From contig JAZQMY010000051.1 of NCBI GenBank assembly GCA_045627045.1, positions 29,771 through 93,770 of the forward strand: a stretch of DNA of 64,000 nt, given 5' to 3'. Below, one piece after another: positions 33,583 through 40,846 of this stretch. Numbering within the stretch: position 1 is the first letter of the stretch; each line of letters begins with the position of its first letter. A program made the translations under genes and the position numbers. This stretch comes from Clostridia bacterium (GTDB lineage: Bacteria > Bacillota > Clostridia > HGM11327). The notes below the pieces were generated by a model. That model was not told where the DNA came from. It made no database searches and was given only the letters and a program-made list of their open reading frames with translations.

Positions 33583-33607
33583 GTAACGAATCATCATTTG
33601 ATACGTC
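33583..33607 (+). promoter_or_regulatory. ECF-type promoter (GTAAC-N16-CGTC), probably autoregulatory for the sigma/anti-sigma operon
   Basis: ctGTAACgaatcatcatttgataCGTCtaa matches the sigmaX/sigmaM/sigmaW-class AAC...CGTC consensus. Confidence 0.5.
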
Positions 33608-33619
33608 TAACCGGCGAAT

Positions 33620-34138
33620 TTGAGAAAAGAGGTGATGATAAGCAGTATGGATTATGAAAAAATATACGAAGTACGCTATATGCAGGTTTATTCGTATGTA
33701 ATGACTCTCTGCAAGGACAAGAAAGCCGCAGAAGAAATTACCCAGGAAACATTCTTTCGTGCCATGTCGGCAAGTGAGAAGGCTTCCTTCAGGGATGAAT
33801 CAAGCGAGCTTACGTGGCTTTGCGCCATTGCAAAGAATCTTTATACGGATGAAATGCGGAAGCAGAAGCGCTTTGCCGAAATGCCTGAGGATATCCTTTG
33901 CGAAGACGATATCGAGGGCGAGACAGAGGACAAAGAGCTGTCATTCAGGATCCATGTTGCACTCCATAACCTTGAGGAACCGTACAAGGAAGTGTTTCAG
34001 CTGAGGGTTTTCGGCGAATTGCCGTTTGCCTCAATAGGAAAGCTTTTCGGCAAAACGGAGAACTGGGCGAGGGTGACTTATCATCGCGCAAAAGTAAAAA
34101 TTCAGGAAAGGATGAAATCAGATGAACAAAGATTGTGA
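33620..34138 (+). CDS. ECF (sigma-70 family) RNA polymerase sigma factor
   Basis: Region 2 (AEEITQETFFRA) and region 4 HTH (LPFASIGKLFGKTENWARVTYHRAK). The true start may be the internal ATG at 33635 or 33647. Confidence 0.75.
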   Translation: MRKEVMISSMDYEKIYEVRYMQVYSYVMTLCKDKKAAEEITQETFFRAMSASEKASFRDESSELTWLCAIAKNLYTDEMRKQKRFAEMPEDILCEDDIEGETEDKELSFRIHVALHNLEEPYKEVFQLRVFGELPFASIGKLFGKTENWARVTYHRAKVKIQERMKSDEQRL

Positions 34139-37996: not shown

Positions 37997-38045
37997 CCCT
38001 GACAAAAGGGCATTATGATGAATTATAAGGAGGCAAAAGAACAAA

Positions 38046-38810
38046 ATGTCTGTTCTTGAAGTTAAAAATCTCAAAAAAATCTATTCTACGAGATTCGGGT
38101 CAAATCAGGTAACTGCTTTGAGCAATGTCAATTTTACTGTTGAGAGGGGAGAGTTTGTAGCCATAATGGGCGAGAGCGGATCGGGCAAGACAACTCTGCT
38201 GAATATTCTTGCGGCACTCGACAGACCTACGTCCGGAAGCGTTGTGCTTGACGGCATGGAGCTTTCAAAAATCAAGGAGTCCCAGATGGCGACGTTCCGC
38301 AGAAAGAACCTCGGATTTGTTTTTCAGGACTTCAATCTTCTCGATACGTTCAATATTGAGGATAATATTTATCTTCCTCTTGTGCTTGCGGGAAAGAATT
38401 ATAACGAAATGCGAGGAAAGCTTGTTGAGCTTGCTCCGAGGCTCGGCATTGCAGGTCTTCTGAAGAAGTATCCTTACGAGGTCTCCGGCGGACAGAAGCA
38501 GCGTGCGGCAGTTGCAAGAGCAATGATAACCGATCCGAAGATAATATTTGCGGATGAACCGACGGGCGCACTTGATTCAAGATCTTCAGATGAGCTCCTG
38601 AAGCTTTTCTGCGAGGTGAATGCCCAGGGTCAGACGATCCTCATGGTAACACATTCTGTTAAGGCGGCGAGCGTTGCGTCAAGAGTCCTTTTCGTTAAGG
38701 ACGGCGAAATCTTCCATCAGATCTACAGAGGCGGAGATTCGGATGAAATGCTTTATCAGAAGATAAACGATACCTTGACAATGCTTACGACGGGGAGTGA
38801 TAAGAAATGA
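38046..38810 (+). CDS. ABC transporter ATP-binding protein (BceA/MacB-type)
   Basis: Walker A GESGSGKTT; LSGGQKQR; Walker B IIFADEPT. Confidence 0.85.
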   Translation: MSVLEVKNLKKIYSTRFGSNQVTALSNVNFTVERGEFVAIMGESGSGKTTLLNILAALDRPTSGSVVLDGMELSKIKESQMATFRRKNLGFVFQDFNLLDTFNIEDNIYLPLVLAGKNYNEMRGKLVELAPRLGIAGLLKKYPYEVSGGQKQRAAVARAMITDPKIIFADEPTGALDSRSSDELLKLFCEVNAQGQTILMVTHSVKAASVASRVLFVKDGEIFHQIYRGGDSDEMLYQKINDTLTMLTTGSDKK

Positions 38811-40846
38811 GAGTATCATTCTTTCTTCGACTTGCCTGGACGGGAATAAAGAAAAATTCAAAGCTTTACGTCCCGTATATACTCAGCAGTATAGGCATGG
38901 TGATGATGTTCTACATATTAAGCTCGCTCGGAGCATCACCTATGGTCGCACAAATCAAGGGCGGAGGCTCATTGAGCATGGTTCTCACTCTGGGGCAGTA
39001 TGTTATAGGATTTTTCTCACTTTTGTTCCTCTTTTATACGAATTCATTCCTTGTCCGCAGACGTTATAAGGAATTCGGCCTTTATAACATCCTCGGAATG
39101 GATAAGAAAAGCATAAGAAAGATAGTATTTTTTGAAACGGTGATAATTGCTCTTATCAGCATTGGCACAGGAATTGCTTTGGGCGTGCTTTTTTCAAAGC
39201 TGGCAGAGCTCGGACTTCTGAATATCGTCAAGGCGGAAATAGATTATAATTTCACGGTCGGCAAAAAGCCTATTTTGATCACGGCGTGCGGATTCCTTGT
39301 AATATTCCTGCTCATCCTTTTCAAATCACTTATTCAGGTCGGAAAAATGAAGCCTCTTGAGCTTATGAGAAGCGAAAAAACGGGTGAAAAGCCTATCCGT
39401 GCCAACTGGGTATTTGCGTTGATCGGTCTTGTGATACTTGCGGCGGCATATGCGATCGCAGTGTCGATAAAAACGCCTGTAACGGCGATTATGGTGTTCT
39501 TCATTGCGGTTATAATGGTAATAATCGCAACGTATATGCTCTTTATGTCGGGCTCTGTGGCGCTCTGCAAGCTCCTTCAGAAGAACAGAAAATACTATTA
39601 CAGAAAAGACCATTTCGTTTCCGTTTCTTCTATGGCTTTCAGAATGAAGAGAAACGGCGCAGGACTTGCTTCGATATGCATTCTTGCAACGATGGTGCTT
39701 GTCATGATTTCATCAAGCTCAAGTCTTTACTTCGGAATGACTGATTCGATCAAGGCGCGATTCCCGATTGAAAATGAAATACTTCTGAGTATGAACGGCC
39801 TTGATCATGATGAAAACGAAATAAATCAGGTAAGAAAGGCATATGAGGATGCTTTCGATGAGCTCGGAGTTCATCCGGACAAGGTCGCAGAATATATCTA
39901 TGCCGAAACTTATTTCTATGAGACGTCAAATAGCCTTGAATATGATCCGACTTTGTATTCGGATACGGCGATCAATTATGATGACCTCAGAGTGTTCTAT
40001 TTCATGAGCGCCGAGGATTATAATAAGTCTGTCGGTAGTAATATCAAGCTTGAAAAGGGTCAGGCCATGATATATCCGCTCAGATGCACATTCGATAAAT
40101 CCGTGATCGAATATGCGGATGTCAGACTTGAAGTGGCAGGAACACTTGATGCTCCCGGAGAGATCCCCGATGCAAAGGTATCTCTCTTCCCGGCGATATT
40201 TGTGGTGGTGAATGACTTCAGTGAATTGGAGCCAAACGGAGAAATCAAGATCGACGAAAATTATTTATTCAGATTCTCTTATTATTACGGCTACGAAATG
40301 CCCGGAACGGAGCACGATGCTGAGTCAATGTCAATGCTCAGAAAGAACCTTTCCATTCTTGATTTCCTCGCTGATTACGGCTACGGCCTTTCAAGCTCCT
40401 GCTATGAGCTTGAACGTGACGATTTTGTTGCAACATACGGCGGTCTGTTCTTTATAGGAATAATACTCTCCATAGCATTCATATTTGCCGCTGCAATGAT
40501 AATCTACTACAAGCAGATATCGGAGGGCTTCGAGGATCAGGCAAGGTTCGGAATAATGAAGAAGGTCGGAATGACGAACGAGGACATCAAAAAGAGCGTA
40601 AACTCGCAGGTTGTGACGGTTTTCTTTGCGCCGCTTCTCTTTGCCGGACTCCACCTTGCGTTTGCATTCCCGCTCGTGTGGAAGCTGCTCCAGCTCTTCA
40701 ACCTCTATAACCTTAAGCATGTAATACTTGTAACGCTCATTGCATATGCAATATTCAGTCTGTGCTATGTTCTTATTTACAAGCTTACGGCAAGGGCATA
40801 CTACAATATAGTAAGCACTTCTTCAAACGACAGAAAGGTTTATTGA
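38807..40846 (+). CDS. FtsX-like ABC permease with large extracellular domain (BceB-type)
   Basis: 679 aa; about 10 TM helices with a large loop between TM7 and TM8; ATGA overlap with the ATPase. Confidence 0.75.
   Translation: MRVSFFLRLAWTGIKKNSKLYVPYILSSIGMVMMFYILSSLGASPMVAQIKGGGSLSMVLTLGQYVIGFFSLLFLFYTNSFLVRRRYKEFGLYNILGMDKKSIRKIVFFETVIIALISIGTGIALGVLFSKLAELGLLNIVKAEIDYNFTVGKKPILITACGFLVIFLLILFKSLIQVGKMKPLELMRSEKTGEKPIRANWVFALIGLVILAAAYAIAVSIKTPVTAIMVFFIAVIMVIIATYMLFMSGSVALCKLLQKNRKYYYRKDHFVSVSSMAFRMKRNGAGLASICILATMVLVMISSSSSLYFGMTDSIKARFPIENEILLSMNGLDHDENEINQVRKAYEDAFDELGVHPDKVAEYIYAETYFYETSNSLEYDPTLYSDTAINYDDLRVFYFMSAEDYNKSVGSNIKLEKGQAMIYPLRCTFDKSVIEYADVRLEVAGTLDAPGEIPDAKVSLFPAIFVVVNDFSELEPNGEIKIDENYLFRFSYYYGYEMPGTEHDAESMSMLRKNLSILDFLADYGYGLSSSCYELERDDFVATYGGLFFIGIILSIAFIFAAAMIIYYKQISEGFEDQARFGIMKKVGMTNEDIKKSVNSQVVTVFFAPLLFAGLHLAFAFPLVWKLLQLFNLYNLKHVILVTLIAYAIFSLCYVLIYKLTARAYYNIVSTSSNDRKVY

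Follow-up and report, generated by a model that had tools for sequence, protein, structure and literature searches.

The window (the whole stretch of DNA analysed, 64,000 nucleotides) carries seven co-oriented genes in which an ECF sigma/anti-sigma pair and a DUF4097 lipoprotein gene are followed directly by a Bce-type module. The question is whether these form one combined sensing circuit, as a preliminary description of the locus had proposed, or separate systems that have become neighbours. We consider the latter quite probable, i.e., two autonomous envelope-stress modules, adjacent through a rearrangement specific to this lineage.

Layout of the locus

The existence, order, coordinates and identity of the seven genes in the preliminary description were borne out by the open reading frames and by Pfam:

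33647–34138 (+): ECF sigma factor, 163 aa; probable start ATG 33647, ORF open from TTG 33620
34122–35096 (+): anti-sigma factor, 324 aa; multi-pass membrane protein, N-terminal zf-HC2
35098–36216 (+): DUF4097 (Toastrack) lipoprotein; Pfam DUF4097, lipobox Cys23
36242/36248–36919 (+): BceR-type OmpR-family response regulator (RR); Response_reg plus Trans_reg_C, probable start ATG 36248
36923–37909 (+): BceS-type histidine kinase (HK); HATPase_c, BceS match
38046–38810 (+): BceA-type ABC ATPase; Pfam ABC_tran
38807–40846 (+): BceB-type permease; Pfam FtsX
40893–40942 (+): long hairpin 3' of bceB; weak T tail (TTTGCT)

The hairpin is probably the end of the co-oriented cluster; folding of the 104-nt stretch after bceB: dG −33.8 kcal/mol, z −5.1.

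The sigma/anti-sigma/DUF4097 triad

Sigma factor: Pfam found Sigma70_r2 plus Sigma70_r4_2 and these regions only; NCBIfam gave TIGR02937 (E 8.5e-23; 80.8 bits, cut-off 42.9); similarity to characterised ECF sigma factors was at the superfamily level only.

Anti-sigma factor: The gene shares 17 nt with the sigma gene; zf-HC2 was found (Pfam, E 1.1e-10), the zinc-finger motif H31-x3-C35-x2-C38 (HxxxCxxC) was read from the translation, and at least six TM segments were indicated by a hydropathy scan, all in line with the overlapping zinc-finger, multi-TM anti-sigma factor first described. Orthologues fall into two size classes, 243–249 aa and 314–326 aa, and the window protein belongs to the long form.

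Promoter: One element was located before the sigma gene:

33582–33607 (+): ECF promoter, predicted autoregulated; TGTAACGAA-N13-CGTC

The GTAAC-N16-CGTC promoter of the preliminary description is present at 33583–33607 as the sole copy within the window, where relaxed patterns did not yield a second one either. By itself the motif is not significant (0.42 copies expected by chance; at least one copy in 34 of 100 shuffles); it is taken as real because every one of the 49 orthologous loci whose upstream DNA reaches far enough has TGTAACGAA-N13-CGTC before the sigma gene at the same distance, −39 to −46 counted from its approximate start. Its closest likeness we take to be the SigX consensus, TGTAAC...CGAC.

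On these predicted features (regions 2 and 4 only, zf-HC2, membrane anchoring, promoter of the AAC-N16/17-CGT type) the pair is classed as an ECF (group IV) sigma factor with a ZAS-type anti-sigma factor. With the Bacillus-type pairs SigW-RsiW and SigX-RsiX it has in common a sigma factor with regions 2 and 4 only, a downstream overlapping anti-sigma gene with the HxxxCxxC motif, and a promoter of the autoregulated AAC-N16/17-CGT type; it differs from them in the multi-pass anti-sigma factor (at least six TM segments) with hardly any extracellular domain, and in a Toastrack gene as the obligate third gene of the operon type. The main text of the ECF classification of Casas-Pastor et al. (2021) makes no mention of DUF4097.

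DUF4097 lipoprotein: Pfam PF13349 was matched with E 4e-36 (124.9 bits, cut-off 22.9), which together with zf-HC2 gives the domain confirmation suggested in the preliminary description. The lipobox LLTG-C23 and about 12 (S/T)TSGxI repeats can be read in the translation, as had been noticed; the one hydrophobic segment, at the N-terminus, closes with the lipobox. The AlphaFold model (pLDDT 91.6) is almost entirely beta, and the best Foldseek matches were 4qrk (2.4e-8), 3pet, 3lyc and 4opw; 4qrk and 4opw are exemplars named for the Toastrack fold (PMC11237479), and the modelled structure thus confirms a Toastrack beta-helix. This fold is common to the DUF4097/DUF2154/DUF2807 proteins LiaG, YvlB, LiaF and LiaX (C-terminal domain), and the window locus also repeats their operon link to a transcriptional stress regulator; comparative genomics has linked Toastrack genes in operons to stress regulators, sigma factors included (PMC11237479). 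The same work argues that Toastrack is generally intracellular, whereas the domain is predicted to be extracytoplasmic here because a lipobox or N-terminal signal anchor is present in nearly all 53 orthologues. The nearest other DUF4097 homologue is 38% identical.

The earlier label "LiaF-like" proved imprecise. NCBIfam gave no match to LiaI-LiaF-TM, LiaF or LiaI models, and no PspC domain was found in the protein; the best named match was LiaG (109.8 bits, below the cut-off of 285), and a LiaX match was likewise below the family cut-off. Membership of the LiaF family was rejected on the missing LiaI-LiaF-TM domain, the lipoprotein character and the linkage of the gene to sigma/anti-sigma in 53 loci; an extracytoplasmic Toastrack protein of the LiaG/YvlB/LiaX type is the better description.

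Triad in other genomes: The three genes recur in the same order, tightly spaced, in 53 related loci of rumen and gut Clostridia (sigma identity 55–62%). The flanking genes vary, the gene downstream often reads in the opposite direction, no conserved fourth gene follows even in the window's own subclade, and a clear terminator ends 22 of 52 triads. A Bce module adjoins none of the 53. By this comparison the triad is a unit conserved independently of the Bce module, with a conserved cis-element of its own.

The Bce module and its operator

Response regulator and kinase: The OmpR-type assignment of the response regulator was upheld (Response_reg plus Trans_reg_C, Pfam). HATPase_c was the only Pfam domain found in the kinase, whose best PDB match was BceS 8g3a (E 3.6e-35, full length) and best NCBIfam match SapS; the hydropathy scan placed two TM helices at 14–32 and 38–56 with about 5 residues between them, as expected of the intramembrane-sensing kinase with a minimal loop proposed earlier.

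Transporter: The ATPase (ABC_tran) and permease (two FtsX stretches) agree with the BceA/BceB-like assignment. The hydropathy scan gave the permease about 10 TM helices, with TM7 and TM8 separated by a large extracellular domain that shows up as a hydrophilic loop of about 245 residues (303–547); the PDB matches of this protein were PsdB 9ugg (4.7e-43) and BceB 7tcg (6.5e-28), and no others.

Regulatory elements: The following lie between the kinase and bceA:

37900–37937 (+): strong hairpin; overlaps the kinase stop codon and embeds the BceR box
37910–37949 (+): predicted BceR-type operator; primary inverted repeat TTCTTAC-N6-GTAAGAA plus secondary half-site
37981–37986 (+): −10 element TATAAT of the bceAB promoter; no good −35

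The core of the BceR box, TTACA-N4-CGTAA (37913–37926), has one core mismatch inside a perfect 7-bp inverted repeat; the secondary half-site is TGTAAGC (37943–37949). Box, half-site and −10 have the same geometry in 37 of 45 distinct related HK-bceA spacers, and in relatives a TAnAAT follows the box at about 68 nt. The missing −35 is what would be expected of an activator-dependent promoter. The box is the sole intergenic copy within the window, and none was found upstream of sigma. The 86-nt stretch with the kinase-end hairpin folds with dG −27.5 kcal/mol (z −4.5); relatives do not share the extended stem of the window, and the hairpin may terminate or attenuate the bceRS transcript.

Conservation: The order RR-HK-ATPase-permease is conserved in 83 related loci by one count and in 47 by another (identity 63–81% for the RR, 63–79% for the ATPase). 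The triad was found in none of the 83, of which 28 were informative (enough upstream DNA). On permease, intramembrane-sensing kinase, OmpR-family RR, gene order and predicted BceR operator, the four genes are assigned to the Bce type. They have the gene order in common with BceRS-BceAB and PsdRS-PsdAB of Bacillus subtilis, as well as an ACA-N4-TGT-class inverted repeat before bceA and a promoter without −35; PsdB and BceB are the only solved-structure relatives of the permease, and the kinase, with its two TM helices and minimal loop, gives a full-length alignment with BceS. The window differs in that one operator half is CGT instead of TGT, the operator sits inside a much longer hairpin, and bceRS, which closes a longer operon, lacks its own intergenic promoter.

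The upstream operon and the slot before bceR

The co-oriented cluster begins well before the sigma gene:

29950–29986 (+): intrinsic terminator, CCGCAGGA/TCCTGCGG stem plus T run (sequence reading)
30007–30107 (+): two sigma-70-type promoters, TTGACA-17-TATCAT and TTGACA-17-TATAAT
30157–30825 (+): TetR-family regulator, first cluster gene; Pfam TetR_N, E 3.7e-7
30822–31226 (+): small membrane protein, 4 TM (hydropathy scan); no significant Pfam family
31242–31949 (+): ABC ATPase of a second transporter, DrrA/lantibiotic-protection type; Pfam ABC_tran, NCBIfam
31951–33555 (+): 12-TM permease of the second transporter; 12TM_1/ABC_tran_2

The cluster is bounded upstream by this terminator, which closes the gene before it. 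Both promoters have a TG two bases upstream of the −10 hexamer, contain the palindromes TGTGATATCA/TGATATCACA, which are probably TetR operators, and are the only consensus promoters in the cluster. In locus L160 a TetR homologue (44% identical) precedes the counterpart ABC genes, and the ATPase is 77–84% identical in L062, L075 and L156–L162.

In four related loci the second ABC transporter (12-TM permease) lies just upstream of bceR, and the insert between them is variable or absent: upA-upP, an 18-nt gap and then RR-HK-A-B in L075; a DNA_alkylation gene in L156/L157; an AraC/GyrI-like gene in L160. In the window the same slot is filled by the triad. This synteny is documented in about four loci only and is absent from the closer BceB relatives L073 and L074; the direction of change could be an insertion in the window lineage or a loss in L075.

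Probable coupling of the two modules and alternative explanations

The preliminary description had held that promoters and terminators separating sigma, anti-sigma and DUF4097 genes from the RR-HK-ABC genes would speak against a joint locus. Half of this separation was found: an independent promoter and a strong hairpin lie between bceRS and bceAB, and nothing of the kind lies between the DUF4097 gene and bceR. There the DUF4097 stop codon and the bceR start are 25–31 nt apart, with neither a terminator nor a promoter of better than 8/12 matches; one weak candidate is CGGGCA-18-AATAAT at 36188–36217. Since a terminator and a convincing promoter are missing after the DUF4097 gene, sigma, anti-sigma, DUF4097 and bceRS are likely co-transcribed, with predicted ECF-driven read-through into bceRS; a weak internal bceR promoter or Rho-dependent termination may operate instead. 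The coupling looks like a lineage-specific accident and not a conserved circuit.

The arrangement had rightly been called distinctive: among the loci compared, triad and Bce module stand side by side only in the window genome (0 of 53 triad loci and 0 of 28 informative Bce loci have both). So rare an arrangement speaks against a combined sensing circuit that is conserved, and the idea of such a circuit as a conserved design was not sustained; the units are conserved separately, each with its own cis-element, and the triad occupies a variable slot. Because the databases contain no close relative of the window organism, unsampled relatives may share the arrangement.

A selected feed-forward circuit, in which the ECF sigma factor senses envelope damage, transcribes bceRS and thereby primes a faster or stronger induction of bceAB by a later peptide antibiotic, is rather unlikely. 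The short gap before bceR, free of a terminator or convincing sigma-70 promoter, would suit it, the more so as 22 of 52 other triads do end in a terminator, and there is a precedent in Enterococcus faecalis, where direct induction of the Bce-type sapRS by LiaR strengthens the response (bioRxiv 10.1101/2022.11.16.516778). In that LiaFSR -> SapRS -> RapAB/Dlt cascade a general envelope-stress system raises and primes a Bce-type two-component system, which read-through in the window would resemble, and SapS is also the kinase's best NCBIfam match; however, the E. faecalis link was shown experimentally through a LiaR binding site in the sapRS promoter (same source), whereas that of the window is a predicted read-through from an ECF promoter and is not conserved. 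The arrangement is missing from every triad locus and informative Bce locus compared, the unrelated genes in the slot of relatives point more to a site that tolerates insertions than to a design, and the TetR-controlled operon would supply bceRS transcripts anyway, as in L075, L156 and L160.

It is highly improbable that the DUF4097 lipoprotein is a two-component accessory (cf. LiaF-LiaS, VraT-VraS, CseA-CseBC) and that sigma, lipoprotein, RR and HK form one signalling device. Toastrack proteins that partner two-component systems are known (PMC11237479), and the order sigma-(anti-sigma)-lipoprotein-RR-HK bears a superficial likeness to sigE-cseA-cseB-cseC of Streptomyces coelicolor, where ECF sigma, lipoprotein, RR and kinase genes likewise form one co-oriented operon (PMC6767563). 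Yet the DUF4097 gene accompanies sigma/anti-sigma in 53 loci without an adjacent two-component system, and RR and HK accompany BceAB in 47 loci without a DUF4097 gene. In the sigE system, moreover, an anti-sigma factor is lacking and the promoter depends on CseB and is not recognised by the system's own sigma factor (PMC6767563), CseA is not a Toastrack protein and CseBC is not of the Bce type; the window has an anti-sigma factor, an ECF promoter of the autoregulated type, no BceR box upstream of sigma, and a two-component system that belongs to a different, separately conserved module. A sigE-cseABC-type operon was rejected on the anti-sigma factor, the promoter type and the lack of a BceR box there. 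An assembly artefact (chimeric contig) is hardly credible. Nothing specific speaks for it; the source is probably a draft or metagenome-assembled genome. NCBI lists the DUF4097, BceB and 12-TM permease proteins on a contig of one and the same length, 97,718 bp, composition is uniform across the junctions, and these are clean and in frame with stop and start signals intact.

Proposed mechanism and meaning

In the preferred reading of two autonomous modules, the sigma factor of the first would be held by the multi-pass zinc-finger anti-sigma factor and released, presumably, upon envelope or membrane perturbation; freed, it would transcribe its own three-gene operon from TGTAACGAA-N13-CGTC, with the membrane-anchored Toastrack protein as the conserved output and a putative modulator or co-sensor of the anti-sigma factor. 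The flux-sensing mechanism of Bce systems is known from B. subtilis work; by this analogy BceAB of the second module would detect peptide antibiotics bound to lipid II-cycle intermediates and activate the sensor-less kinase BceS, and BceR~P would bind the TTAC-N6-GTAA operator and switch on bceAB. In this clade bceRS would have no promoter of its own and would form the end of a long operon that starts at the TetR-controlled promoter and includes the second ABC transporter with its 12-TM permease. The slot before bceR is filled by different genes from genome to genome, here by the ECF operon, and ECF transcripts running on into bceRS would be a by-product of the insertion and not a conserved design.

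Each module is a well-known kind of envelope-stress system; the locus is ordinary, and the link between them is possibly useful but accidental. If the read-through is real, ECF activation would raise BceRS levels.

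Gene content of the locus

A combined envelope-stress locus of seven genes had been placed at 33583–40846 in the preliminary description. The seven plus-strand ORFs were recovered at these positions by ORF reading, and every domain assignment was borne out by Pfam:

+ strand, sigma gene: Sigma70_r2 plus r4_2
+ strand, anti-sigma gene: zf-HC2
+ strand, third gene: DUF4097 (E 4e-36)
+ strand, response regulator (RR) gene, bceR: Response_reg plus Trans_reg_C
+ strand, histidine kinase (HK) gene, bceS: HATPase_c
+ strand, transporter genes, bceA and bceB: ABC_tran and FtsX, FtsX in two stretches

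Judged by RBS spacing and by the lengths of orthologues, translation likely begins at ATG 33647 for sigma (163 aa) and at ATG 36248 for the response regulator. Sigma and anti-sigma genes overlap by 17 nt. The zinc-finger motif of the anti-sigma factor is H31-x3-C35-x2-C38; at least six TM segments were indicated by hydropathy scan, and no relative was found among solved structures. The same type of scan gave two TM helices separated by ≈5 residues for the kinase, and ≈10 TM helices with a hydrophilic domain of ≈245 residues (residues 303–547) for the permease.

Toastrack (DUF4097) protein

The third gene product begins MKITRS...LLTGC, a lipobox with Cys23, and carries ≈12 (S/T)TSGxI repeats. 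Its AlphaFold model is a confident beta-helix (pLDDT 91.6) whose best PDB matches (Foldseek) were 4qrk, 3pet, 3lyc and 4opw; 4qrk and 4opw are exemplars that define the Toastrack fold (PMC11237479). Among named families, LiaG matched best, followed by the C-terminal region of LiaX, both below cut-off; the LiaI-LiaF-TM domain is absent from the protein, and the label "LiaF-like" was accordingly dropped. N-termini of nearly all of the 53 orthologues found beside a sigma/anti-sigma pair (see below) consist of a short basic stretch with one hydrophobic helix, or of a lipobox; the beta-helix should therefore face outwards. In loci L001–L057 (L-numbers denote related loci from other genomes), nearly every DUF4097 N-terminus has the conserved sequence Y-[AP]-N/D-A-[DE]-K-Y-T-x-G after its membrane anchor. 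On these grounds the product is a Toastrack protein, predicted to be extracytoplasmic, and not a LiaF. Toastrack domains have been argued to be generally intracellular, and operon links to sigma factors were noted (PMC11237479); the present family is an apparent exception, like the surface protein LiaX.

Conservation of the triad and its promoter

Relatives of the sigma/anti-sigma/DUF4097 triad: a narrower DUF4097 alignment (A3), from which the window protein was left out, was scanned against one genome per species; 70 loci were obtained, mostly from rumen and gut Clostridia metagenome-assembled genomes (MAGs), and two more from contig look-ups (72 in total). By tblastn with the window proteins, 53 of the 72 loci were found to hold the triad, tightly packed and in unchanged order; identity to the window proteins: sigma 55–62%, anti-sigma 37–52%, DUF4097 26–38%. 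The majority form (48 of 53 loci) has an anti-sigma factor of 243–249 aa and a signal-anchored Toastrack protein; the minority form (the window and five loci, L002, L050, L054, L055 and L057) has an anti-sigma factor of 314–326 aa and a Toastrack protein that is mostly a lipoprotein, with a true lipobox in four of the five loci.

Genes flanking the triad vary by locus, the downstream neighbour being often on the opposite strand, and 22 of 52 triads are closed by an obvious intrinsic terminator, at most 100 nt from the end of the DUF4097 gene. A conserved fourth gene was considered and rejected, the neighbours being unrelated even in the subclade of the window; minority-form triads are followed by genes for alanyl-tRNA synthetase, DUF2268, DUF4178 and a GyrI-like protein. 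Judged by this comparison, the triad is a self-contained operon. No Bce module adjoins the triad in any of the 53 loci, nor was a significant BceB match found in any of them. The nearest approaches were L010, with Bce-like RR, HK and ATPase genes 5 kb upstream, and L050, with a BceA-like ATPase gene 8.5 kb downstream and nearer RR/HK matches that were only weak.

ECF promoter: the motif GTAAC-N16-CGTC of the preliminary description was found at 33583–33607. By chance, 0.42 copies are expected per window, and at least one copy occurred in 34 of 100 shuffles; since a lone motif is so frequent, relatives were gathered to test its conservation. It is conserved upstream of sigma: TGTAACGAA-N13-CGTC stands 39–46 nt before the approximate sigma start in every one of the 49 loci that offer 150 nt or more of sequence upstream of sigma, two of them with a one-base variant. 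The element is read as the phylogenetic footprint of a predicted autoregulated ECF promoter, the reality of which is shown by conservation and not by motif statistics. No second ECF promoter was found in the 64-kb window by strict or relaxed pattern, and by neither pattern was the motif present in the window upstream of bceR, of bceA or of the second ABC transporter genes; additional strict matches in related loci were sporadic and not placed before conserved genes.

Bce module and its operator

By homology, the final four genes form a standard Bce-type module. The only solved-structure relatives of the permease were PsdB (4.7e-43) and BceB (6.5e-28). The best solved relative of the response regulator was 5dcl/5dcm, which we take to be NsrR, a BceR-like regulator. 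The kinase matched BceS over its full length (E 3.6e-35), and in NCBIfam it came closest to SapS, which is the Bce-type kinase in E. faecalis (bioRxiv 10.1101/2022.11.16.516778). A BceB alignment scanned against metagenomes gave 80 loci, and three were added from look-ups; identity across the 83: RR 63–81%, HK 41–60%, BceA 63–79%, BceB 40–57%. Gene order was RR-HK-A-B in 47 loci, those with the regulator gene captured. No sigma, anti-sigma or DUF4097 homologue was found at any of the 83 loci, 28 of which were informative (>2.7 kb upstream of bceR).

Elements in the HK-bceA spacer (136 nt):

37913–37926 (core), candidate BceR box TTCTTAC-N6-GTAAGAA, core TTACA-N4-CGTAA
37943–37949, half-site TGTAAGC
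37981–37986, -10 element TATAAT, without -35

Of 45 distinct spacers from related loci, 37 contain the box, the half-site and the -10 element at identical spacing, and the box fits the ACA-N4-TGT class of BceR-like regulators (bioRxiv 10.1101/2022.11.16.516778). No further intergenic copy occurs in the window; the two other exact copies lie inside long ORFs, the total count being at chance level, and none was found in the window upstream of the TetR/ABC operon or of sigma. A hairpin with a 15-bp stem (37900–37937) overlaps the kinase stop codon and encloses the candidate operator; the 86-nt stretch that contains it folds to −27.5 kcal/mol (z −4.5). Folding of the RNA and binding of the regulator may be in competition at this site. 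The extended hairpin was rejected as a conserved feature, relatives having the short operator palindrome only.

Upstream operon and variable slot

The co-oriented cluster begins ≈3.5 kb upstream of the seven genes (29950–33555), and gene junctions are tight from its start through bceS:

29950–29986, + strand, terminator, upstream edge of cluster
30007–30107, + strand, two near-consensus sigma-70 promoters with palindromes, ahead of TetR gene

The palindromes are probably TetR operators. The promoters are followed by genes for TetR, a 4-TM protein, a DrrA-like ABC ATPase (upA, 31242–31949) and a 12-TM (12TM_1/ABC_tran_2) permease (upP, 31951–33555). Outside the cluster, a SpoIID/SH3 protein gene was found at 27391–29922, and a M23/G5 peptidase gene, a spore photoproduct lyase-like gene and Rho at 42515–47533 (− strand); given these housekeeping and sporulation neighbours, the locus is chromosomal in a spore-forming member of Clostridia, not plasmid or phage. 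Directly past the Bce module, two overlapping short ORFs (41044–41260) were read as one helix-turn-helix protein split by a frameshift, with the N-terminus in one frame, the C-terminal "...RIPGPDRFGRSWVIPEDAEKPADPR" in another and a weak HTH_59 match; they may be the remains of a mobile-element or regulator gene.

At L075 (BceB 57% identical), homologues of upA and upP (84% and 46% identical to those of the window) precede bceR after an 18-nt gap. Further cases were sought with the L075 permease, and gene contexts were read:

L075, 2–6512: upA-upP, then RR-HK-A-B; slot before bceR empty
L156/L157, 7293–15844 / 7171–15721: upA-upP-[DNA_alkylation]-RR-HK-[Exo_endo_phos]-bceA-bceB
L160, 5428–15654: TetR-...-upA-upP-[AraC/GyrI-like]-RR-HK-bceA-bceB

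The backbone in a subset of the clade is therefore a second ABC transporter, a variable slot and bceRS-bceAB; at L158/L159 and L162 the upA/upP pair occurs without a Bce module. From this synteny, the slot looks like a permissive insertion site, filled in the window by the ECF triad. The triad-Bce juxtaposition is idiosyncratic, which accounts for its rarity. The gap between bceR and the gene before it is 0–31 nt in all four backbone loci; bceRS thus appears to ride on the long upstream operon without its own promoter.

The 8-base repeat ATAATATA (33555–33562 and 36213–36220) overlaps the stops of the 12-TM permease and DUF4097 genes, with the triad exactly between its two copies. Target duplication or microhomology could account for it, as could chance in AT-rich DNA, which was put by rough estimate at a few per cent. 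In the near-identical contigs L156 (13793–15844) and L157 (13671–15721), one carries an uninterrupted BceB-type permease (683 aa) and the other has it broken into ORFs of 275 aa and 408 aa, either a disrupted gene or an assembly error. At L062 (4958–7283), in a MAG labelled Spirochaetales, homologues of upA and upP are 77% and 36% identical to those of the window, with a distant DUF4097 gene ≈2.7 kb away on the other strand; the contig is either mis-binned Clostridia or a horizontal transfer.

Probable coupling of the two units

The window thus holds two units, and a conserved cis-element belongs to each; neither module is of a new kind. The annotation in the preliminary description was right; the combined sensing circuit proposed there over-reached, the modules being unlinked elsewhere. 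Coupling in this genome would depend on read-through: in the DUF4097-bceR gap of the window there is no terminator, and no promoter above 8/12 matches. Basal bceRS transcription would come from the TetR-controlled operon; on release of sigma from its anti-sigma factor, the ECF promoter would add transcripts running through sigma, anti-sigma and DUF4097 into bceRS and ending at or near the 37900–37937 hairpin, and bceAB would be induced independently, through BceR~P bound to the operator in front of it. In B. subtilis, transporter activity activates a Bce kinase that has no sensor domain; the present module is assumed to work likewise, from this background and the matched BceAB-S structures. 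Were a working feed-forward loop to result, read-through on envelope damage sensed by the triad would raise BceRS levels and make the response to peptide antibiotics more sensitive.

In function, such coupling most resembles the induction of sapRS by LiaFSR in E. faecalis (bioRxiv 10.1101/2022.11.16.516778). The nearest gene-order look-alike is Streptomyces sigE-cseABC (PMC6767563), whose defining features fail here: the locus has an anti-sigma factor, and the sigma promoter is of the autoregulatory type. A CseA/CseBC-like or LiaF-like role of the DUF4097 lipoprotein was rejected on gene co-occurrence. A role of the Toastrack protein as co-sensor or modulator of the anti-sigma factor is plausible, because the two co-occur obligately and the anti-sigma factor is nearly devoid of extracellular loops. 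The triad could be read as an ECF group widespread in rumen and gut Clostridia, in which an extracytoplasmic Toastrack protein, as obligate third component, would act on a multi-pass anti-sigma factor as its sensor or co-regulator; no description of a DUF4097 triad with ECF and anti-sigma factors was found in the literature, and DUF4097 is unmentioned in the main text of the ECF classification of Casas-Pastor et al. That a working ECF-to-Bce feed-forward loop arose by chance insertion, and/or that the triad is an undescribed ECF group with extracytoplasmic Toastrack, is considered rather unlikely.

Significance

The main value lies in a clean annotation, in which the locus is split into two known modules with defined cis-elements; TGTAACGAA-N13-CGTC and the bipartite BceR operator could be used to look for regulons in uncultured Clostridia of rumen and gut. 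Interest is modest and attaches to possible accidental priming and to an uncharacterised, widespread ECF/Toastrack triad. If read-through is real, a simple insertion can place a resistance module under a general stress sigma factor, and a true feed-forward loop would show, by a case from nature, how layered envelope-stress networks become wired. An extracytoplasmic Toastrack co-regulator, if true, would contradict the proposal that Toastrack works beneath the membrane, and the conserved triad makes the function of Toastrack domains outside the cell a tractable question.
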